Shown piece by piece: positions 538 to 61,364 of a stretch of 62,789 nt of DNA. The stretch is from Desulfurivibrionaceae bacterium (GTDB lineage: Bacteria; Desulfobacterota; Desulfobulbia; Desulfobulbales; JAGXFP01): the NCBI GenBank assembly GCA_046484585.1, contig JAWOIQ010000025.1:1-62789 (forward strand), written 5' to 3'. The position numbers and the translations under genes were made by a program. Under the pieces are notes generated by a model. That model was not told where the DNA came from and made no database searches. It was given only the letters and a program-made list of their open reading frames with translations. Within the stretch, counting starts at the first letter, position 1. Each line of letters begins with the position of its first letter.

Positions 538-810
538 TTACTTTACAGCGTCGGCCAACTTGCTGCCTGGTTTGAAACGGGCAACCTTACGAGCCGGAAT
601 CTTGATGGCGGCGCCGGTCTGGGGATTACGGCCCTGACGAGCGGATCTCTTTGAAATGGAAAAGGTACCGAAACCGACCAAAGTCACTTTGTCCCCTTTA
701 GACAGCGCCCCTGATATTGAATCAAGTAACCCGGTAAGAGCTCTCTCAGCGGCGGCTTTACTAATCCCAGCGGCATCAGCCATGTTTTCTACCAATTCAC
801 CTTTGTTCAT
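538..810 (-). CDS. hup: HU family DNA-binding protein
   Basis: 90 aa. MNKGELV...FGTFSISKRSARQGRNPQTGAAIKIPARKVARFKPG is a typical HU/IHF fold signature. Confidence 0.9.
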   Translation of the reverse strand: MNKGELVENMADAAGISKAAAERALTGLLDSISGALSKGDKVTLVGFGTFSISKRSARQGRNPQTGAAIKIPARKVARFKPGSKLADAVK

Positions 811-1908: not shown

Positions 1909-3081
1909 TCAATTTCCATTAGGTAACATTTTTACAGGCGTGCTCAACTCAAAGCCCTCTTTCTCGATCCATTTCTTCAAAGTCTCGGCAATTTCACGGG
2001 CTCTGACAACACTGGACAACGGCGCGGTCCGCACCGGATTCCCGTTAACTTGGATCTGGCCGCTCTTAAGCTCGGCGTAGCTGACTTCACCGTAATTCCT
2101 GGCAATCCCGTGGGAATAGTCATGGGAATAATCGACCACCTGGGTAAAGATATCCTCGTCAGCGACACCGGTGAAGGCCGCGATCTCTTCATTAAAAATT
2201 GGAATCGGCACTCCGACCCCGACTGCAAGGGTGCAACCATAACCCTGCATACTGACCCCCTTGAGCCAGCGCGAAGACATCTGCTTGAGATCACCCTGCA
2301 ACATCAGGGTGCCGGCGGGTCGTACCGGTACGCCGTTTGCGCCCCGAGGCGCCATGGGGTTATGCTGGGTGCCGTGCCAGGTCACATACCCCTCGCCGCC
2401 GCCGAGAAAGATTCTGGTGCCCAGGCCGATGGTGCGGTAGTACGGATCGTTGATCAACGGACTCAACTGGCCGGCGCTGCAATAGGTGGCGTTACGGCCC
2501 TTGGCTTTCAGGGTACCCATATAGGTATAGATGGTCTTCTCGGAAAGATTGATGGCGCAGTTATAATTCTGGTAGGAGTTTCTGGGATTGCAAAGCAGGG
2601 CGTGGGGAAGATCGGCCAAGGTAAAGCTTTTAACCAGGCTGCGATTGGGATAACAATCAGTCCCGTATCCGCTCCCCTCCAAAACAATCTCCCTGCCCGC
2701 CACCAGATCCTCGATGACGTGTCCGCCGCCGTAACGGAATTCCCCGGGGTAAACCTTATTGAGGGGATCGTCCTCGGTTGGTTCGGTGGCGCCGATATAG
2801 ATATCGACCGCGGCCAGACCGCCGTAAGCCGGCACTCTGTTCAACGAAGCCTTCGCCGCCTTGAAAGTAGGATTGACCGGCCCGAAATTTATAAAGGCGC
2901 CGGAAGAACACATCGGCGAAAAAGTTCCGGTGGTGACAACATCAATCTGTCGGGCAGCCTCAACCGCTCCCTTCTCCTTAACGATCGAAACCATTTCCTC
3001 GGCGGTAACCACCACCGCTTCTCCTGAACGGATGCGAGCATTGATTTCTTCAATCGATTTTACTACCTGATAACTGCTCAT
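1909..3081 (-). CDS. COG1900-type homocysteine biosynthesis protein (MJ0100 N-domain family)
   Basis: 390 aa. By recall it resembles the family that makes homocysteine from aspartate semialdehyde plus sulfide in methanogens and sulfate reducers. Confidence 0.6.
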   Translation of the reverse strand: MSSYQVVKSIEEINARIRSGEAVVVTAEEMVSIVKEKGAVEAARQIDVVTTGTFSPMCSSGAFINFGPVNPTFKAAKASLNRVPAYGGLAAVDIYIGATEPTEDDPLNKVYPGEFRYGGGHVIEDLVAGREIVLEGSGYGTDCYPNRSLVKSFTLADLPHALLCNPRNSYQNYNCAINLSEKTIYTYMGTLKAKGRNATYCSAGQLSPLINDPYYRTIGLGTRIFLGGGEGYVTWHGTQHNPMAPRGANGVPVRPAGTLMLQGDLKQMSSRWLKGVSMQGYGCTLAVGVGVPIPIFNEEIAAFTGVADEDIFTQVVDYSHDYSHGIARNYGEVSYAELKSGQIQVNGNPVRTAPLSSVVRAREIAETLKKWIEKEGFELSTPVKMLPNGN

Positions 3082-3137
3082 CTATTGATTCACCTTAATA
3101 GTTGATGGTGCCACAAAAAAGCCGCCAGACCATGGCC

Positions 3138-3313
3138 CCTGAATCCGTGAACGTTAGAGAACGGCCCAGATACCAAGGAGGCCAGGATGTTGATCATGCT
3201 GAGGGTATATCAACGAGTTGTCGACGCGGCAGATCACCCTTTACAGGAACGCCTGAAAGGCGACGGGCAAATTCATCCACCGCGACCCAAGACAGATAAA
3301 CAAGTAATTCAGG
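3138..3313 (+). mobile_element. MITE family B copy (diverged subfamily)
   Basis: Starts with CCTGAATCCGTGA and ends with AATTCAGG. Internal GGTATATCAACGAGTTG and GAACGCCTGAA.GGCG blocks are shared with the copies at 6730 and 11949. Confidence 0.55.
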
Positions 3314-5593: not shown

Positions 5594-5612
5594 CGGTGTC
5601 GTCAGGAAAACG

Positions 5613-6644
5613 CTAACCGCCGATTCTCGACATTCGGCCGTGGCAGTTCTTGATTTCAGACCCGGACAGCTTGTGTCCCTCGGGCTTATTCTTGATGGTC
5701 GCGATTAGGGCCGCGCGAATATCGGCGGCCGTGCCGCCGGACCTGATAATTGTCTTCAGATCGGTTTCCCGGTCGGTAAGCAGGCAGGAGCGCAAGCGGC
5801 CTTCGGCGGTCAGCCGCAGACGATTGCACCGGGCACAGAAATGATCGCTGATCGGGCTGATAAACCCCACGGTTCCCGCCGCCCCCGGCAGGCGAAAGGT
5901 CCTGGCCGGTCCGTCAAACCTGCCGCCGCCAACCGAGGTCAATCCGCCCAGTCCTCTCTCGATCCGGGCCATGATATCAGCGGACTTTATGTAATAATTC
6001 TGCCGCCAGTTGCTGTCGTCACCCATCGGCATAAACTCGATAAATCGAACCTGGAGCGGTTTCTCCACTGACAACCTGGCAAAATCGATAAACTCGTCGT
6101 CGTTAATGCCGTTCATCGCCACCACATTGAGCTTGATCGCGGCAAACTCCCGGCCAAGGGACTCCTCAATGCCCCGCCAGACCCCGCTAAAACCGTCAAC
6201 GCCGGTGATTTCCCGAAAACGCCCGGGTTTGAGGGTATCAAGGCTGATATTGAGTTTGCGGATCCCGGATTCATACAGCTCCGCAATTTTATCTGCCAGC
6301 AACATGCCGTTGGTGGTGATCCGCACCTCTTCAATGCCGTCAAGCCTGGCCAGTTCTCCGATAAAACCGGTGACATCGCGACGAACCAGGGGCTCCCCCC
6401 CAGTCAACCGGACTTTTTTGATACCCAGACCGGCCGCAACTTTTATGACTTCGAGCAACTCCTCGTAACTGAGCAACTCTCCGGCGGAAAGTTTGTCCTC
6501 AAGCGGTTTCGGCGTACAGTAAAAACAGCGCAGATTGCACTGATCGGTAAGAGAGACCCGCAGGTAACTGACCGAGCGGGCAAAAGAGTCGACAAGCCCT
6601 ATGTTTTTCGGCTGTTCCGATGGGTTGCTGCTGAAAATATTCAT
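5613..6644 (-). CDS. moaA: GTP 3',8-cyclase MoaA (radical SAM)
   Basis: CNLRCFYC radical-SAM motif, C-terminal CxxCxxxRLT cluster, GG tail. Confidence 0.9.
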   Translation of the reverse strand: MNIFSSNPSEQPKNIGLVDSFARSVSYLRVSLTDQCNLRCFYCTPKPLEDKLSAGELLSYEELLEVIKVAAGLGIKKVRLTGGEPLVRRDVTGFIGELARLDGIEEVRITTNGMLLADKIAELYESGIRKLNISLDTLKPGRFREITGVDGFSGVWRGIEESLGREFAAIKLNVVAMNGINDDEFIDFARLSVEKPLQVRFIEFMPMGDDSNWRQNYYIKSADIMARIERGLGGLTSVGGGRFDGPARTFRLPGAAGTVGFISPISDHFCARCNRLRLTAEGRLRSCLLTDRETDLKTIIRSGGTAADIRAALIATIKNKPEGHKLSGSEIKNCHGRMSRIGG

Positions 6645-6729
6645 TTAATGACCCAAACAATGTTTTTATGGAATACAGAGCCGATCGTTGCTATCTTGTC
6701 TAACCGATCACGCCTCAATCGAATTCAAA

Positions 6730-6947
6730 CCTGAATCAAAGAGCGTTAAAGAACCGGTCAGAGCAGGAAGGTGGGCCGATATTGATTATCTCACGTTATA
6801 TCAACGAGTTACCGGAACCACGGAAAGACCGAAAACGAACGCCCTGAAGGGCGGCGGAATCAGTTTATCCACCGCGATCACGGAGCGGATAAACAACCAA
6901 TTACAAGCTGGCAAGGGCATACGGCCCAATCGCCGTCATGGATTCAA
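6730..6947 (+). mobile_element. MITE family B copy (diverged)
   Basis: CCTGAATC...TCATGGATTCA termini. The internal TTATATCAACGAGTT and GCCCTGAAGGGCGGCGG blocks align to other B copies. Confidence 0.5.
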
Positions 6948-7071
6948 CTTATCTTAACCCTTATTAAACCGGTAGCCAAATTAAACCGTTAGCCAAATTA
7001 ATCGCTTTGTATTAAAGAAGACCAACTTGCAAAAAGGCACAGCGGAGCATAGCCCCCTTATAAACCTTACA

Positions 7072-7196
7072 CCTGAATCCATGACGGCTTAGTGCATTGA
7101 CTCACTATGTGATTGTTTTTACGTCAAATACGACAGTGATCCGAGGTGGCTGGAATGCACCCGCCGCCCTGCGGGGCGCCCTGGAACGGATTCAGA
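7072..7196 (-). mobile_element. MITE family B, internally deleted copy
   Basis: CCTGAATCCATGA ... GGATTCAGA termini, an internal GCGCCCCGCAGGGCGGCGGG block, and TTACA on both flanks. Confidence 0.6.
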
Positions 7197-7227
7197 TTAC
7201 AAGCTTCAGGAAATCACCAAAATCATC

Positions 7228-8232
7228 ATGTTGATCCTCGGAATTGAAAGTTCCTGCGACGAGACCGCGGCCGCGGTATTGGCCGACGGCAAAACCCTGC
7301 TGGCCGATGTCATCAACTCCCAGGTTGATATACATGCCCTTTACGGCGGAGTGGTCCCGGAACTTGCCTCGCGGCAGCACATCCGGAATATCAGCCACGT
7401 AGTCGATACCGCCCTGAAAGAAGCCGGGCTGACCCTGGACCAGATTGACGGGCTGGCGGTGACCGAAGGACCGGGACTGATCGGATGCTTGCTGGTGGGC
7501 CACACCTATGCCAAAGCTCTTTCGCTGGTTCGGCAAATTCCCATGGTCGGAGTCGACCACCTGACCGGCCATCTGCTATCGATCTTCCTAGCCGAGGAAC
7601 ACCCGGCCTTTCCTTATATTGCGATGGTCGCTTCCGGGGGTCATTCGAGCATCTTTCTGGTCGAAGGGCCCGAAAAGTTCAAACTGCTCGGCCGTACCCG
7701 TGACGATGCCGCCGGCGAAGCCTTCGATAAAGTCGCCAAACTTCTCGGTCTCGGCTATCCCGGCGGACCACTTATCAGCAGAGCGGCCGAGAAGGGAGAT
7801 CCCGAAGCCATTAATTTTCCCAGGGCGTGGCTGGGCCGTGACAACCTGGACTTCAGCTTCAGTGGTCTGAAAACGGCGGTGGCCAATTATGTCAATCAAC
7901 ATAAAAAAAAGGACATGGAGCTGAACATTGCCGACCTCTGCGCCTCCTTTCAGGAAGCAATCGTCGAGGTGATTACCACCAAAACCCTGCGGGCCGCAAG
8001 TCAGAACGGCTGCCGGAATATCGTTCTGGCCGGCGGAGTCGGCGCTAATCCGCGTCTGCGGGAATTAATGCTCAACCGAGGCAGGGCGGAAAACAAAAGC
8101 GTCTTTCTGAACCCGAAAAGATTCTGTACCGACAACGCGGCGATGATCGCCCTGGCCGGCTATTTAAAGTTCAAGGGTAACGCGGAAATCTGTCCGGATT
8201 CCGACGTCTATTCGAGATCGACCTTCAGTTGA
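7228..8232 (+). CDS. tsaD: tRNA N6-adenosine threonylcarbamoyltransferase TsaD
   Basis: MLILGIESSCDETAAAV N-terminus, 334 aa. Confidence 0.9.
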   Translation: MLILGIESSCDETAAAVLADGKTLLADVINSQVDIHALYGGVVPELASRQHIRNISHVVDTALKEAGLTLDQIDGLAVTEGPGLIGCLLVGHTYAKALSLVRQIPMVGVDHLTGHLLSIFLAEEHPAFPYIAMVASGGHSSIFLVEGPEKFKLLGRTRDDAAGEAFDKVAKLLGLGYPGGPLISRAAEKGDPEAINFPRAWLGRDNLDFSFSGLKTAVANYVNQHKKKDMELNIADLCASFQEAIVEVITTKTLRAASQNGCRNIVLAGGVGANPRLRELMLNRGRAENKSVFLNPKRFCTDNAAMIALAGYLKFKGNAEICPDSDVYSRSTFS

Positions 8233-8238
8233 AAAATG

Positions 8239-8393
8239 GTAACCGTTCAGCAGCACCGCATCTTCGGACTATCGGCCCGGCTTACGTACACGAGGTACGC
8301 GGCGCCGGTCCGCTTGTCCAAATCTGCATCACTGCTAAACAGTTACAGTCCGGCGGTTCTGGATACTTTGGCGTCCCCCCGGTGAACGGTTAC
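8239..8393 (+). mobile_element. MITE family A copy 1 (155 bp), flanked by 8-bp TSD GAAAAATG (8231-8238 and 8394-8401)
   Basis: Termini are GTAACCGTTCAG / GAACGGTTAC. It is about 90% identical to the copies at 41390 and 47632 and has perfect flanking direct repeats. Confidence 0.9.
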
Positions 8394-8398
8394 GAAAA

Positions 8399-9268
8399 AT
8401 GAAAAAGCAAAATAACATAAAACAAACACTCAGGAACTCAAGGCTGGCGCCCAGTAAAGAGCGCGGTCAGAATTTCCTGGTCAATCCGGCGATCTCCGAG
8501 GCCATTATCGCCAAAGCCGGTGTTACCGGAGAGGACACGATCATTGAACTCGGAGTGGGTCTGGGGGCCGTGACCATTCCCCTGGCGGCGAAAGCCCGAG
8601 AGGTGATCGGCATTGAGCTGGACAAAGGCATCGTCGAATGGCATCAGGAGCAAAATATCCTGCCGTCTAACGTCACCCTGATCCATCAGGATCTCCTCAA
8701 GACCGATTTTCGGGAATTATCCGCCCGGATCGGCGGCAAACTGAAGATCATCGCCAATCTGCCCTACTCGATCTCCAACCCCTTGATTTTCAAACTCATC
8801 GAAAATCGTGACGTGATGGAATACGCGGTTTTGATGCTGCAAAAGGAAGTCGGCCAACGTCTGCAGGCGTCCCCGGGAACAAAGGTCTACGGAGTGCTGT
8901 CGGTCCTGCTCGCTGCCTGTGCCTCGACAAAAATCATCATGGAGGTGGGACCGGAACAGTTTCACCCCCGCCCGAAAATCGACTCGGTAGTCACCAGGAT
9001 CCTTTTCGACCCGCCCCCATTGAGGGTCAGGGAACTGCCGGACCATGACCCGGCCCTGCTCAAGAAAGCGGTAAACGCCGCCTTTCAGCAGCGGCGCAAG
9101 ACTCTGTTCAACAGTCTCTCTTCATCGAGTATTCCCAATACCGACAAAAAAAAGCTGAAAGTTGTTCTGGAAAAAGCCGGGATCGACCCCAAGGTTCGAC
9201 CCGAAAAGTTGTCAGTCGAGGAATTTGTCCGGCTGGTCAACACGATCCAAAATCCTGATTTGCCTTGA
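8399..9268 (+). CDS. rsmA: 16S rRNA (adenine1518/1519-N6)-dimethyltransferase RsmA/KsgA
   Basis: ERGQNFLVNP motif, a SAM-binding ELGVGLGA motif, 289 aa. Confidence 0.9.
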   Translation: MKKQNNIKQTLRNSRLAPSKERGQNFLVNPAISEAIIAKAGVTGEDTIIELGVGLGAVTIPLAAKAREVIGIELDKGIVEWHQEQNILPSNVTLIHQDLLKTDFRELSARIGGKLKIIANLPYSISNPLIFKLIENRDVMEYAVLMLQKEVGQRLQASPGTKVYGVLSVLLAACASTKIIMEVGPEQFHPRPKIDSVVTRILFDPPPLRVRELPDHDPALLKKAVNAAFQQRRKTLFNSLSSSSIPNTDKKKLKVVLEKAGIDPKVRPEKLSVEEFVRLVNTIQNPDLP

Positions 9269-9269
9269 T

Positions 9270-9412
9270 CCTGAATCCGTAATTGCTTTGCAGAAGATTT
9301 TGCTCTATCAGTTTTGATGGCGTCGCAAAAAGTCCAATCTATATACCATTAGTATTATCAACATCGCTGCCGCCTTGCATCTGCACCGTTCTCGAACGCT
9401 CACGGATTCAGG
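9270..9412 (-). mobile_element. MITE family B copy with a family-C-like core
   Basis: In reverse complement it begins CCTGAATCCGTGAGCGTTCGAGAACGGTGCAGATGCAAGGCGGC. It then carries GACTTTTTGCGACGCCATC (the family C terminus) and ends ...CAATTACGGATTCAGG. Confidence 0.7.
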
Positions 9413-9423
9413 CTGATGACAAA

Positions 9424-11922: not shown

Positions 11923-11948
11923 TTTATTCTCTCCCGGTTTTATTTTTC

Positions 11949-12224
11949 CCTGAATCCGTGAGCGTTCGAGAACGGTGCAGATGCAAGGCGGCAAACGATG
12001 TTGATTATACTAATGGTATATCAACGAGTTGCCAAACACCGCACCCCAAGGGTTCTGTTCAATCCTCCTTTAAGGAGGGCACTTCCTGCGGGGCGCAGAT
12101 GCCGCCGTTATCGGGCGCCCCGCAGGGCGGCGGGATGAATCATGCGACCCAGGGAAAAACGATTATTTTAATGCAATTACAAGTTGATAAAGTTAACCCC
12201 ATACAAAGACGTCACGTATTCAGG
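11949..12224 (+). mobile_element. MITE family B, long reference copy (276 bp)
   Basis: CCTGAATCCGTGA ... TCACGTATTCAGG termini. It has internal hairpins (CTGCGGGGCGC...GCGCCCCGCAG) and aligns along its length with 41634-41853. Confidence 0.8.
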
Positions 12225-13207: not shown

Positions 13208-13364
13208 ACTCTCGAAAAGTCACGGGATGGCTAAGCAAAAAGTCAAGACTGTCTATAAAGTCATTTCGACCATCGGGCGAAATTTTTATATAGTAGTATG
13301 GGTCAAGGTATAAGTTTTCATATCTGGGTTCGAAATGACAGCTTTTTTTCGACTTTTTGCGAGT
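13208..13364 (+). repeat. repeat family C copy
   Basis: ACTCTCGAAAAGTC ... GACTTTTTGCGAGT inverted termini, with the conserved GGATGGCTAAGCAAAAAGTC module after the left end. Confidence 0.55.
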
Positions 13365-16765: not shown

Positions 16766-16930
16766 AAACTCGCAAATAGTCCCAAGATGGCTAAGCAAAA
16801 ATCGTCAGATACAGGGCGCGCGAATTTTGAGGAATGAAGCGTACTTCAGTACGCTGCAATGACGAGACAATTTGCAGCAACGCGGGAGCTACCGATTTAT
16901 GCCCTTGAGGGTGCTTTCTGCGACGCCATC
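16766..16930 (+). repeat. repeat family C copy
   Basis: About 85-90% identical to 23445-23579 over more than 100 nt (GATGGCTAAGCAAAAATCGTCAGAT...GCTGCAATGACGAGACAATTT...TGCGACGCCATC). The right end overlaps the skp stop codon. Confidence 0.7.
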
Positions 16931-20688: not shown

Positions 20689-20709
20689 GTCGCATCTTTC
20701 TGTATTCAA

Positions 20710-20898
20710 CCTGGATCCGTGAGCGTTCGAGAACGATGCAGATGCAAGGCGGCGGGTGAATCATGGCGACTCAGTAAAAAGATTTTTTCACTTAACATCA
20801 AATGGATAAAGCTGAGTTGAGCAGCTTGTCGGCTCATACGAAACTTATGCCCTGTGAGGTATAAAGCAAAATTCACAACGAAGCCGTCACGGATTCAG
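20710..20898 (+). mobile_element. MITE family B, internally deleted copy
   Basis: CCTGGATCCGTGAGCGTTCGAGAACGATGCAGATGCAAGGCGGC ... GCCGTCACGGATTCAGA, with TTCAA on both flanks. Confidence 0.75.
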
Positions 20899-23424: not shown

Positions 23425-23579
23425 GATGAATTCGTAAAAAGTCAAAAATGGGATGGCTAAGCAAAAATCGTCAGATCCAAGGCGCGCGAATTTCGAGGAA
23501 TGCAGCGTACTTCAGTCGCTGCAATGACGAGACAATTTTGCATTAAACGAAGGAGCTGGCGACTTTTTGCGACGCCATC
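23425..23579 (+). repeat. repeat family C, reference copy (155 bp)
   Basis: Inverted termini are GATGAATTCGTAAAAAGTC / GACTTTTTGCGACGCCATC, with a GGATGGCTAAGCAAAAATCG module. Confidence 0.75.
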
Positions 23580-33589: not shown

Positions 33590-33640
33590 GCATGCGACTC
33601 CTGAACCGACTGACTTAAATATCCGTTCATAAAGACAAAG

Positions 33641-33787
33641 TCGCAAAAGGTCTAGGGATGGTTAAGCAAAAGCGCGATATGCGCCCGGAGGAAGTTCCCT
33701 CGGGGTGTGCCCGGAGTAAGTGCCTCCTCAAGGGAGATTGAGCAAAACTCTTGGAGTGCAGGAAGCGATGTATTTTTTGTTAAAGCA
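33641..33787 (+). repeat. repeat family C copy (degenerate right end)
   Basis: TCGCAAAAGGTCTAGGGATGGTTAAGCAAAAGC left module. The right boundary is uncertain. Confidence 0.4.
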
Positions 33788-41182: not shown

Positions 41183-41389
41183 CGTCTGCTTTATGGATAA
41201 TCAGGGTAAAATCCCATTGAATCATAGGAACCGCGCCGCTTTTGAGTATTCAGTTTTCCGTTACAAGGCAAGTAAACGTACAATCTATATCTTTCTTTCC
41301 ATTCGCCTGCAATGATAATCTTGTAAGGGTGATGGTTCACTTCCCGTCAACCGTTATGGTGTCGGCTCAAACTCTTTATTTGAAAAAAT

Positions 41390-41545
41390 GTAACCGTTCA
41401 GCCGCACCACATCTTCGGACGATCAGCCCGGCTTACGTGCATGAGGTACGCGGCGCCGGTCCGCTTGTCCAAATCTGCACCACTGCTGAACGGTTACAGT
41501 CCGGCGGTTTTGGGTGCTTTGGCTACTGCCCCGGGGAACGGTTAC
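41390..41545 (+). mobile_element. MITE family A copy 2 (156 bp), TSD GAAAAAAT (41382-41389 and 41546-41553)
   Basis: Same termini and internal sequence as the copy at 8239, with a perfect 8-bp flanking repeat. Confidence 0.9.
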
Positions 41546-41633
41546 GAAAAAATCACGGGGTATGCGCGGATTGTCATCAGCAAAATATCATCAGCAAAAT
41601 AGTGACATGTCCCGGGAAAAATACTAGCATAAA

Positions 41634-41853
41634 CCTGAATCCGTGTGGGTTCGAGAACGGTGCAGATGCAAGGCGGCAACGATGTTGATAATACTGATGG
41701 TATATTAACGAGTTGCCAACGCGGCAGTTGCGCCGTTATCGGGCGCCCCGCAGGGCGGCGGGGTTAATCGAGGCGACTCAGCAAAAAACTATTATTTTAC
41801 GTAAAAACAAACTGATAAAGCAAAATCCCCCTAGAAGCCTTCACGGATTCAGG
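41634..41853 (+). mobile_element. MITE family B copy (220 bp), flanked by ATAAA/ATAAA
   Basis: CCTGAATCCGTG ... TCACGGATTCAGG termini. It aligns with 11949-12224. Confidence 0.8.
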
Positions 41854-43817: not shown

Positions 43818-43895
43818 ACTCGCAAAAAGTCACAGGATGGCAAAGCAAAAAACTAAGGGTACGGTGTTAATTCCCACCGTACCCTTTTTGCAAAT
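43818..43895 (+). repeat. repeat family C short variant
   Basis: ACTCGCAAAAAGTCACAGGATGGCAAAGCAAAAAAC module followed by a strong hairpin. Confidence 0.55.
43857..43889 (+). terminator. intrinsic terminator downstream of pepF
   Basis: GGGTACGGTG-TTAATTCC-CACCGTACCC followed by TTTTT. Confidence 0.75.
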
Positions 43896-46359: not shown

Positions 46360-47628
46360 ATGGTTTTCCAGAAACTGCTGCTCCTGATCATGGCCTTGCT
46401 CGGCACCCCGATCTTCGTGATCATTGCCGCCTTCGCCCTGCTCTCCTTCCACTCGATCGGGGTGGACAGCTCGGTGATCATAATCGAGATGTCCCGGCTG
46501 GCCGAAACCCCCATGCTGCTCTCCCTGCCGCTATTTATTTTCGCGGGCACCTTGCTTTCGGACAGCAATGCCCCCCGGCGGATGCTGAACATTTCCCAGG
46601 TGCTGCTGGGCTGGATGCCCGGCGGCCTGGCGGTAATCGCGCTGTTGATCTGCGCCCTTTTCACCGCCTTTACCGGCGCCTCGGGGGTAACGATCTTCGC
46701 CCTCGGCGGCATCCTTTTCCCCTCCCTGCTCAAGGATAATTACCCGGAAAACTTCTCCCTCGGCCTGGTAACCACCACCGGCAGTCTCGGCCTGCTCTTC
46801 CCGCCGAGTCTGCCCCTGATTATCTACGGAGTTATTTCCGAAACGAGAATCGACCAGCTTTTCCTGGCCGGAATCCTGCCGGGCATCCTGATGCTGGTCC
46901 TTCTGGCCGGCTACAGCATTTACAAGGGGAGACACGTCCGCAACCGGGAATTTTCCTTCTCCGGGCCGGACATCAAAAAAGCGCTGCGGGAAGCCGCCTG
47001 GGAAATTCCCTTGCCCTTTATCATCCTGGGCGGAATCTACGGCGGGATATTCGTGGTCGGAGAGGCGGCGGCGGTTACCGCCCTCTACGTGCTGATTGTC
47101 GAGGTCTTCATCTATCGGGATATCAAGTTAGGCCAGCTTGCGCCGATCATAGTCAAGAGCATGATCCTGTTCGGCGGCATTCTGGTGGTGCTGGCCGCCT
47201 CGATGGCCTCCACCAACTACCTGATCGACCAGGAAATCCCCGGCCAGCTCTTCGAGTTGATCAGGCAATACGTGCACAACAAGTATGCCTTCCTGCTGAT
47301 GCTGAATATCTTCTTGCTGATCGTGGGCACCATGCTGGACATCTTCTCGGCCCTGGTCCTGATCGTGCCCCTGATCGTCCCGATTGCCCAGCTTTACGGG
47401 GTTGACCTCGTCCACCTGGGCATCATTTTCCTGACCAATCTTCAGATCGGCTACTGCACCCCGCCGGTGGGGATCAACCTCTTTCTGGCCAGCTACCGGT
47501 TCAACCGGCCGGTCACCACGCTCTACTCAGCCAGCCTGCCTTTTCTGGCCCTGTTGCTCATCACCCTGGCGATCATCACCTATTTCCCGCTGCTGAGCCT
47601 CTATCTGGTCAAGCTCTGGGGTTCCTGA
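46360..47628 (+). CDS. dctM: TRAP transporter large permease (DctM family)
   Basis: Polytopic membrane protein of 422 aa. Confidence 0.85.
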   Translation: MVFQKLLLLIMALLGTPIFVIIAAFALLSFHSIGVDSSVIIIEMSRLAETPMLLSLPLFIFAGTLLSDSNAPRRMLNISQVLLGWMPGGLAVIALLICALFTAFTGASGVTIFALGGILFPSLLKDNYPENFSLGLVTTTGSLGLLFPPSLPLIIYGVISETRIDQLFLAGILPGILMLVLLAGYSIYKGRHVRNREFSFSGPDIKKALREAAWEIPLPFIILGGIYGGIFVVGEAAAVTALYVLIVEVFIYRDIKLGQLAPIIVKSMILFGGILVVLAASMASTNYLIDQEIPGQLFELIRQYVHNKYAFLLMLNIFLLIVGTMLDIFSALVLIVPLIVPIAQLYGVDLVHLGIIFLTNLQIGYCTPPVGINLFLASYRFNRPVTTLYSASLPFLALLLITLAIITYFPLLSLYLVKLWGS

Positions 47629-47631
47629 ATC

Positions 47632-47787
47632 GTAACCGTTCACCGTGCCGATCTCCAAAGTACCCAAAACCGCCGGACTGTAACCGTTCAGCAGTGGTGC
47701 AGATTTGGACAAGCGGACCGGCGCCGCGTACCTCGTGTACGTAAGCCGGGCCGATCGTCCGAAGATGTGGTGCTGCTGAACGGTTAC
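47632..47787 (-). mobile_element. MITE family A copy 3 (156 bp), TSD CCTGAATC (47624-47631 and 47788-47795)
   Basis: Reverse orientation with perfect 8-bp flanking repeats. The left TSD contains the dctM stop codon. Confidence 0.9.
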
Positions 47788-47810
47788 CCTGAATCCGATA
47801 AGTAAACACC

Positions 47811-60074: not shown

Positions 60075-61364
60075 TTATACTCCATGTTTTTTCGTATTTT
60101 TCAGCAGGGCCTCTTTAATTTTTTTAATCTCTTCTGAAACCGTTTTTTCAATCACCTCAACAAGAAGTCCTTCTATTTTATCGGAGAGCATCTCCCGTAC
60201 CACTCTTTCGATGGCCTTTTCCACCTGTGTCGGAGATATAGAACTATCGGCCTTCGGTACGATCTCCTTTTCCTTGACGATTGTATCACCCGGTCGAATT
60301 CTGGATTCAAACTTAAAATCAATCGGAGCGCCCTCTTTTCTCATGTCTTTCACTTTAACGGTCATGACGCCCTTGTGATCCAGCCTGGTCTCCATCCCGC
60401 GCTCATCAGAAGAATCCTCTTTTGAAATTTCAAGGGCGGAATCCAGTTCAAAATCAAGAGACTCCGCGAATTGATTTTCAATCTCACGACTCACTTCAGA
60501 ATCATCTTCTCCGGGTATTTCAATTTCGTCATCCGGCTCAAGCAGATCCTTTTCCGATTCCGAGAGTTCTTCTTCTTTCGCGTCAACTCTTGCTTCACGG
60601 TTTATTTCCTCAACCAGTTCAATCAGGTCTTCATCAACCTTGCCGGATATGGAAGGAATATCAGTTATTTCGGATACTTGAATTTCATCTCTTTCTTCGG
60701 TCTCATCAGGCTTTCCACTCGCCTTCGCATCCGGAGACGCCGTGGTATCGGTCAGATCGATGATCTCTTCTTCTTCAACCGTATCCGCCAGATCAAGGAT
60801 CTCTTCTTCCTCACCCGCGGACTCGATGGTATCCGTCAATTCGATGGTGGTTTCTTCTTCAAGCGCATCCATCAAGTCGACAGGCTCCTCTTCCGCATCC
60901 AGGAAGGCTGCGGTATCGGCCAGATCGATGATCTCTTCTTCTTCAACCGTATCCGTCAGTTCAAAGATCTCTTCCTCTTCACCCGCGGGCTCGACGGTAT
61001 CCGTCAATTCGATGGTGGTTTCTTCTTCAAGCGCGTCCATCAAGTCGACAGGCTCCTCTTCCGCATCCGGGAAGGCTGCGGTATCGGTCAGATCGATGAT
61101 CTCTTCTTCTTCAACCGTATCCATCAGTTCAAGGATCTCTTCCTCCTCACCCGCGGGCTCGACGGTATCCGTCAAGTCGATGGTAGCCTCTTCTTCAGCC
61201 TCATCTGTCAGATCAAAGATATCTTCAACCAGATCAGCGGATTCGACAACATCGGATAATTCGATAATGTCGTCTTCGACAGCATCCGTCAATTCGATAA
61301 TTTCATCATCATCTGGCAAATTTGAATCTTTTGTGTTCTTACCGGGTTCGTCCTTTTCAACCAT
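60075..61364 (-). CDS. hyperacidic tandem-repeat protein with a non-repetitive C-terminal domain
   Basis: 429 aa. About 18 copies of an (I/L)(D/E)L(T/M)D motif embedded in E/D runs. I recognise no family. Confidence 0.7.
   Translation of the reverse strand: MVEKDEPGKNTKDSNLPDDDEIIELTDAVEDDIIELSDVVESADLVEDIFDLTDEAEEEATIDLTDTVEPAGEEEEILELMDTVEEEEIIDLTDTAAFPDAEEEPVDLMDALEEETTIELTDTVEPAGEEEEIFELTDTVEEEEIIDLADTAAFLDAEEEPVDLMDALEEETTIELTDTIESAGEEEEILDLADTVEEEEIIDLTDTTASPDAKASGKPDETEERDEIQVSEITDIPSISGKVDEDLIELVEEINREARVDAKEEELSESEKDLLEPDDEIEIPGEDDSEVSREIENQFAESLDFELDSALEISKEDSSDERGMETRLDHKGVMTVKVKDMRKEGAPIDFKFESRIRPGDTIVKEKEIVPKADSSISPTQVEKAIERVVREMLSDKIEGLLVEVIEKTVSEEIKKIKEALLKNTKKHGV
60744..61195. 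repeat. 168-bp tandem repeat, about 2.7 copies (coding, 56-aa unit)
   Basis: GGTATCGG(T/C)CAGATCGATGATCTCTTCTTCTTCAACCGTATCC recurs at 60744, 60912 and 61080. Confidence 0.85.

Follow-up and report, generated by a model that had tools for sequence, protein, structure and literature searches.

In the genome of a Desulfurivibrionaceae bacterium, the genes tsaD and rsmA are separated by a 155-nt non-coding segment, and this raises the question of what the segment is, how it came to lie exactly at the junction of the two genes, and what moved it there. The DNA analyzed (hereafter the window) is a stretch of 62,789 nucleotides from contig JAWOIQ010000025.1, and the segment, which we call family A, occurs three times in it. 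As set out below, family A is almost certainly a MITE, or miniature inverted-repeat transposable element, that makes 8-bp target-site duplications: it has inverted repeats, duplications of fixed length that differ from copy to copy, empty sites in relatives, no conserved reading frames, and a wider family of 94–299-nt elements spread over more than 200 loci. The fuller reading, in which a non-autonomous MITE of 155–156 nt with 8-bp duplications is moved in trans by a putative IS66-family transposase, is one that we consider likely.

Three copies of family A in the window

Copy 1 (8239–8393, plus strand, 155 nt) follows the stop of tsaD and precedes the start of rsmA. The divergent genes parE-like and pepF flank copy 2 (41390–41545, plus strand, 156 nt), and the convergent genes dctM and DJ-1 flank copy 3 (47632–47787, minus strand, 156 nt). 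An earlier reading made from the letters of the window (the sequence-only reading) had placed the three copies at exactly these coordinates and strands, with an identity of roughly 90%; the pairwise identities that we measured are 89%, 92%, and 95%, and an alignment of the three copies including 20-nt flanks on each side gave a mean column identity of 89%. The ends are inverted, as that reading had also described, with left and right termini (GTAACCGTTCAG and GAACGGTTAC, respectively) that form a perfect terminal inverted repeat of 10–11 nt. Every copy carries these terminal inverted repeats, GTAACCGTTC(A) and (T)GAACGGTTAC, which are also conserved across the subfamilies considered further below. 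Moreover, the 13-nt end motif (with up to two mismatches) occurs nine times in the window against 0.89 expected, and none of 100 shuffles reached nine.

A third end motif inside the element, together with a hairpin formed by the first 100 or so nucleotides, had been proposed as well. This motif, at element positions 94–108, is intact in copies 2 and 3 (CTGCTGAACGGTTAC), and folding of copy 3 brings positions 1–107 into one hairpin. In copy 1, the corresponding motif (8332–8346, plus strand) is degenerate (CTGCTAAACAGTTAC). Because this internal motif is mutated, the left end of copy 1 pairs instead with the far right end, giving a fold of −59.8 kcal/mol with a z-score of −3.5.

Target-site duplications and empty sites

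All three copies in the window are flanked by perfect 8-bp direct repeats, and the repeated 8-mer is a different one at each, just as had been claimed. For copy 1, the duplication GAAAAATG lies at 8231–8238 and 8394–8401 (plus strand), with the left one overlapping the GA of the tsaD TGA (8230–8232) and supplying an ATG at 8236, and the right one containing the rsmA ATG (8399–8401). Copy 2 is bordered by GAAAAAAT (41382–41389 and 41546–41553) and copy 3 by CCTGAATC (47624–47631 and 47788–47795), the left repeat of the latter holding the TGA stop of dctM. By chance, a perfect 8-bp duplication is expected at 1 in 65,536 sites. Among the full-length family-A copies in the loci that we recovered (n = 28), 16 have perfect 8-bp duplications and seven have duplications with one mismatch, while three of the other five resemble offsets in the alignment of the ends. 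When all subfamilies are counted, 40 distinct insertions have an 8-bp duplication that is perfect, and in these the duplicated 8-mers are 67% A+T, as compared with 43% for the surrounding DNA. The target consensus is palindromic, S-A-W-W-W-W-T-S, with G or C at positions 1 and 8, A at position 2, T at position 7, and A or T in the middle.

Contigs of relatives about 95% identical to the window were reached via RsmA homologues and via 90% clusters of the flanking proteins. Copy 3 is filled, with the same duplication, in L113 (JBHEOZ01) and L114 (JAIVHF01), and a precise empty site for it is found in L115 (JGI Ga0371479) and L116 (a Logan contig), where the reading ...GGGGTTCTTGAATCCGATGAGTAAA is that of the two copy-3 flanks of the window joined by a single 8-mer. 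For copy 2, each of the three relatives compared (L113, L114, and L115) has the element at the orthologous site, and for this reason we regard it as an older insertion. Copy 1 is filled, again with the same duplication, in L111 (JAIVHF01) and is missing from L110 (JBHEPJ01), L112 (Ga0371479), and L226 (Logan). The copies are accordingly polymorphic, carried by some and lacking in others of the genomes that are about 95% identical to the window. Flanks joined by one 8-mer were thus found for copy 3 and for a further copy in L080 described in the next section, and these precise empty sites, along with the 40 independent insertions with perfect duplications, uphold the proposal that the copies are products of transposition.

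A parallel insertion at the ubiE/ubiX junction

In L080 (Desulfobulbales bacterium C14-07), a family-A copy (590–745, minus strand) with the duplication GAAAAATG is located between a UbiE/MenG methyltransferase gene and ubiX. The window's close relatives JBHEOZ01 and JBHEPJ01 have the empty state at ubiE/ubiX, and the precise empty site for this copy is read in L227 (1490–1510; GTAGGTGAAAAATGAGCGCT). According to the gene calls for L227 and L228, the ubiE TGA overlaps the ubiX ATG by 4 nt (ATGA), and the insertion in L080 is one that split a translationally coupled junction. There, the GTAA end of the element serves as the new TAA stop of ubiE, and the right duplication keeps the ubiX ATG. Two independent copies have therefore used the same 8-mer at stop/start junctions, namely tsaD/rsmA in the window and ubiE/ubiX in C14-07, and the latter identifies a compact junction of the TGAAAAATG type as a favoured target.

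The left duplication in such copies also opens a reading frame that crosses the element. In 156-nt copies with the GAAAAATG duplication, an open reading frame (ORF) of 55 codons begins at the left-duplication ATG and ends in a TGA overlapping the ATG of the next gene (L111 2837–3004; L080 581–748, minus strand). The ORF in the window (8236–8385, plus strand) has 49 codons and is not a conserved coding frame; its start and length agree with the sequence-only reading, but its stop codon ends 13 nt, and not 15 nt, before the rsmA ATG, this position being due to a 1-nt deletion in the 155-nt copy. We rejected a coding role for the 49- to 55-codon ORF, given that among 26 copies the +0 frame is free of stops in 16, the +2 frame in 19, and the −0 frame in 11, so that the several frames open in many copies are an effect of GC composition. 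The element is rich in GC and often has stop-free frames, so the bridging ORF is probably incidental. Where it is 55 codons long, it could, on a reading that we hold to be improbable (see below), relay ribosomes across the insert to the downstream gene.

History of the tsaD–rsmA junction

On either side of copy 1, tsaD (7228–8232, plus strand; NCBIfam TIGR03723, E 2.8e-130) and rsmA/ksgA (8399–9268, plus strand; NCBIfam TIGR00755, E 3.2e-71) are both intact and 166 nt apart, and on this point the coordinates and the NCBIfam matches agree with the sequence-only reading. Its reconstruction of the ancestral junction as TGAAAAATGAAAAAG, with a spacer of 3 nt, found no support among the relatives available. 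The MITE-free relatives (L110, L112, and L226; about 95% identity) all have an unrelated tsaD–rsmA spacer of 87–89 nt, followed by a GTG start (L110 2912–3000; L112 2911–3000; L226 358–446). This spacer is laid out as TGAAAAAG, about 57 nt, GAAAAAG, and TCAACCGAGCGACTAATGA. We also observed that the approximately 57-nt part takes the form of an insert that has GAAAAA(A)G and GAAAAAG as its flanking direct repeats and includes a small GGGG...CCCC hairpin. The filled allele of the window and L111 is without the 87–89-nt spacer, and the first two rsmA codons differ: rsmA opens with ATG AAA AAG in the window, with GTG AGT AAG in L110 and L226, and with GTG CAA in L112. Relative to these MITE-free genomes, the history of copy 1 is then not that of a simple insertion, as the filled and unfilled alleles differ in that the 87–89-nt spacer and the first two rsmA codons are replaced, and this counts against the account given above.

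The spacer was considered as a decayed MITE or another repeat, which we rejected because it resembles the element at only about 58% over 24 nt and is found nowhere else in the recovered DNA. In more distant relatives, the tsaD–rsmA spacer is shorter, with 34 nt in L105 and 20 nt in L106. The 34-nt spacer of L105, which begins GGTAACCGG, was likewise rejected as a MITE remnant, for it can be aligned to the L110 spacer in the 3′ part of the latter (TCAACCGAGCGACTAAT), and it is this alignment that makes the spacer ancestral. In L108, from a relative whose RsmA is 75% identical, tsaD and rsmA have a DUF2062 gene (2492–3004) between them, and the structure of the junction thus varies across the clade.

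No precise empty site for copy 1 was found among the MITE-free relatives or in the JGI metagenome collection, where the predicted compact site (CAGTTGAAAAATGAAAAAGCAAAAT), searched as a degenerate 30-mer, had 0 matches. A compact ancestral junction is mechanistically plausible, though unseen in the available relatives, because the sister copy entered a compact junction of the TGAAAAATG type at ubiE/ubiX with the same 8-mer. From the spacers of the relatives and the lack of a compact match, we conclude that the lineage of the window and L111 either lost the spacer before or around the insertion or gained its allele by recombination. A segment with moaA and its flanks (window 5610–7206) is present in the window and L112 and missing from L110 and L111. 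All four combinations of this segment and copy 1 occur among genomes about 95% identical to the window, copy 1 being confined to the window and L111, and the existence of the four combinations suggests recombination among these strains.

As for expression, no consensus for a sigma-70-like promoter or an intrinsic terminator was found in 8000–8600, and co-transcription of tsaD and rsmA is predicted and probably kept. Copy 1 leaves both frames intact and puts a highly structured segment of 155 nt between them. Any stop–start translational coupling at tsaD–rsmA would be broken, or relayed through the incidental ORF. Most likely, the outcome is a structured 155-nt insert in the predicted tsaD–rsmA co-transcript, with rsmA started from an A-rich leader that has no obvious Shine-Dalgarno sequence.

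A superfamily in the Desulfobulbales

Family A is one branch of a superfamily of the Desulfobulbales and Desulfurivibrionaceae. A scan of a one-genome-per-species collection with the 19-nt end GTAACCGTTCAGCNGCACC gave at least 104 loci, and a metagenome scan with the terminus, family A excluded, gave at least 109 further ones. Organism names are carried only by the genome-collection records, and these matches, a few chance ones apart, are in metagenome-assembled genomes that bear one of the labels Desulfobulbales, Desulfurivibrionaceae, Desulfurivibrio, Desulfobulbaceae, or Thermodesulfobacteriota. The superfamily comprises many subfamilies with unrelated interiors that have in common the left end GTAACCGTTCAGCAGCACC(G/A)CATCT (about 19–27 nt) and the right end ...TGAACGGTTAC, and those members with perfect duplications are 94–299 nt long. 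Strong self-complementarity is seen in every subfamily (median z-score, −4.7). The architecture is conserved and asymmetric, with a left end, a hairpin, an internal copy of the right end, a tail of about 47 nt, and the right end itself. In L096, a 108-nt element with a duplication matching at 7 of 8 positions ends at the internal motif, and on account of this shorter version the internal third end motif can probably act as an alternative right end.

Two further observations concern the extremes of the length range. Possible minis of 47–60 nt, consisting of barely more than two ends (e.g., GTAACCGTTCAGCAGCACCGCACGTTGGCGGCACTGCTGAACGGTTGC), were noticed in L181, L188, L005, L031, and L103/L133. 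A 299-nt member with the perfect duplication TGATTTCG is found in L072 (JALUJS010000641.1, 1954 nt), a contig binned as Candidatus Krumholzibacteriia and hence in a different phylum, a placement that could reflect either a binning error or horizontal transfer.

What moves the element

IS66 elements have inverted repeats of 20–30 bp that start with GTAAGCG, and 8-bp direct repeats (PMC11946415), and the IS66 members ISPsy43 and ISPa97 carry GTAACCGTCCGGGCA (PMC12888890). When compared with this ISPsy43/ISPa97 repeat, the end of family A is identical in the first 8 nt and matches at 11 of 15 positions. Moreover, the conserved terminus GTAACCGTTCAGCAGCACC(G/A)CATCT, at about 25–27 nt, agrees with the description of an IS66 inverted repeat (20–30 bp, GTAA(G/C)CG), and the 8-bp direct target repeats agree with it as well. 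It is from the GTAA(C/G)CG ends and the 8-bp duplications that IS66 mobilisation is deduced, and on such sequence features an IS66-family enzyme is rather more probably than otherwise what moves the element. On this view, the GTAACCG... ends would be bound by an IS66-family DDE transposase (TnpC, probably together with TnpA/TnpB), which would cut the target with an 8-bp stagger, and repair of the gaps would leave the duplications. While family A thus shares its ends and duplication length with the IS66 and ISBst12 groups, it differs from them in being without tnpA/tnpB/tnpC, in ends that diverge from the published IS66 repeats beyond about 10 nt, and in its conserved asymmetric architecture; nor was a cognate full-length element found around the exact end matches or in the plasmid and viral collections.

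The sequence-only reading had taken the GTAA termini and 8-bp duplications for the hallmark of IS66 transposition and had advised looking for an IS66-family element with these inverted repeats. Both features fit what is published, but no autonomous element with these ends came to light in the 1.65 Mb of DNA near exact end matches or in the plasmid and viral collections. Besides the history of copy 1, the following weigh against the reading. At the roughly 213 end-bearing loci (1.65 Mb), no transposase-sized ORF was found next to a terminus, and no paired ends 1–5 kb apart had a convincing duplication. A TnpB_IS66 probe, validated against Pfam PF05717 (E 9e-44), found no homologue with phmmer in the same 1.65 Mb, apart from one weak false match in L157. 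Scanning viral contigs with the terminus gave 0 matches, and blastn of the 31-nt terminus against the PLSDB plasmids gave chance matches only. The assignment to IS66 hence draws on two sequence features, the ends and the duplication length. Several candidate parents were rejected: the 1253-nt end pair in L181, the only long one, has a poor end and is spurious; the 40 terminus-only matches have housekeeping genes or other MITE subfamilies as their downstream ORFs; and six identical metagenome matches to the terminus belong to a conserved gene with identical upstream flanks. The search for a parent covered the DNA within a few kb (up to about 10 kb) of exact 19-nt end matches, and because of this scope a parent insertion sequence with a slightly diverged repeat, or one on an unassembled contig, would be missed.

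Among the alternatives, the one that fares best has the MITE moved by a transposase outside IS66, from another 8-bp-duplicating or an undescribed family, with the likeness to GTAACCG being coincidental. In its favour, neither an IS66 gene nor another autonomous element was seen near more than 200 copies, and only 8–11 terminal nucleotides resemble the published IS66 inverted repeats. Yet the other families that duplicate 8 bp (IS1595, ISL3, IS256, IS6, and ISH6) have ends of the GG... or CcTGATT type and not GTAA (ISfinder table). The pairing of GTAA with 8 bp is specific to the IS66 and ISBst12 groups in the same table, for IS66 with support in PMC11946415, and the searches that found no such gene were confined to the surroundings of the exact end matches. 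We therefore hold a mover from outside IS66 to be unlikely. More doubtful still is the suggestion that the superfamily may be an orphan, its transposase undescribed or diverged in the ends it recognises, and that, as a separate matter, some insertions may be kept for operon function at translationally coupled junctions. IS66-type mobilisation of the superfamily is probable.

Other identities for the repeat

A different kind of explanation would make the segment a conserved structured RNA gene or a cis-regulatory element, such as a small RNA, a riboswitch-like rsmA leader, or an attenuator. Its attraction lies in the strong fold (z −3.5), in an intergenic position that looks transcribed, and in the conservation of the stem, with 95.6% of cells paired in the family-A hairpin across 26 copies, though with few (four) compensatory pairs. 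Such self-complementarity is expected of inverted-repeat elements anyway. Each copy lies between flanks unlike those of the others and with an 8-bp duplication of its own, the element occurs in both orientations, between divergent as well as convergent genes, and precise empty sites exist. Rfam offers no match either: in the window only two tRNAs reach the gathering score, and the best model for the element is a plant microRNA, which scores 17.9 bits where the cutoff is 100. With nothing in Rfam and with flanks that differ at every copy, the element is mobile, as had been proposed, and not an RNA gene of fixed context. The duplications, flanks, and empty sites refute structured RNA as the primary identity, and we give it very little probability.

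A palindromic repeat of the repetitive extragenic palindromic (REP) or bacterial interspersed mosaic element (BIME) type, spread by a REP-associated tyrosine (RAYT, Y1) transposase, is the least probable of all, for although family A is also an abundant, intergenic, hairpin-forming repeat and an IS200/IS605-type Y1 transposase ORF occurs in one recovered locus (L157 5031–5468), that ORF is not bounded by these ends, and the elements are 94–299 nt long with terminal inverted repeats and exact 8-bp duplications. REPs are palindromes of 20–40 nt without target-site duplications, and so are much shorter and without long terminal inverted repeats.

A close likeness is to the classical MITEs (Correia of Neisseria, ERIC/IRU, RUP, MITEAba12, Nezha, and Chunjie), which are also non-coding elements of 100–300 nt with terminal inverted repeats and duplications, strong hairpins, intergenic locations often at gene ends, multiple copies, and polymorphism among strains. 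Unlike the element described here, they have other ends and another duplication length, with Correia and IS630-type elements duplicating TA, and the hosts of our element are uncultured Desulfobulbales/Desulfurivibrionaceae. In the searchable literature, we found no description of MITEs in the Desulfobulbales or of an IS66-derived MITE family, and a search with the end sequence itself returned primers only.

Other repeats in the window

The window has a second MITE family (B), with the ends CCTGAATCCGTG.../...CACGGATTCAGG, of which the copy at 41634–41853 is flanked by the 5-bp duplication ATAAA. L113 and L114 do not have this copy and show a precise empty site in its place. Further family-B copies lie near 3137–3224, 9264–9421 (minus strand), 11948–12150, and 20701–20898. 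In L115, another family-B copy is found just downstream of the empty site for family-A copy 3, where the native sequence (CCTGAATCCG) is by coincidence the same as the family-B terminus over its first 10 nt. There is also a tandem array at 60726–61313 with a period of 84 nt (six overlapping 168-nt windows, 61–100% identity), and a short dispersed repeat, ...GATGGCTAAGCAAAAA..., in four to five copies (13208–13241, 16768–16850, 23452–23516, 33639–33672, and 43818–43851), one pair of which extends to 65 nt with 94% identity.

Significance

Family A is a well-supported new MITE family, and indeed part of a new superfamily, while the kind of element is entirely familiar and entails no new kind of biology. 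If the link to IS66 is true, this would be a well-documented, lineage-wide superfamily of IS66-derived MITEs with a defined target preference, of which we found none described. For annotation, knowledge of the family avoids spurious ORF calls, as several ORFs of 50–150 codons cross copies, and the family accounts for contig breaks in these metagenome-assembled genomes. Moreover, by landing precisely at gene junctions, the element can uncouple or rewire the translation of operons. Lastly, the family is a ready marker of recent genome dynamics in the uncultured and environmentally important Desulfurivibrionaceae and other Desulfobulbales, with genomes about 95% identical to the window differing in the copies that they carry.

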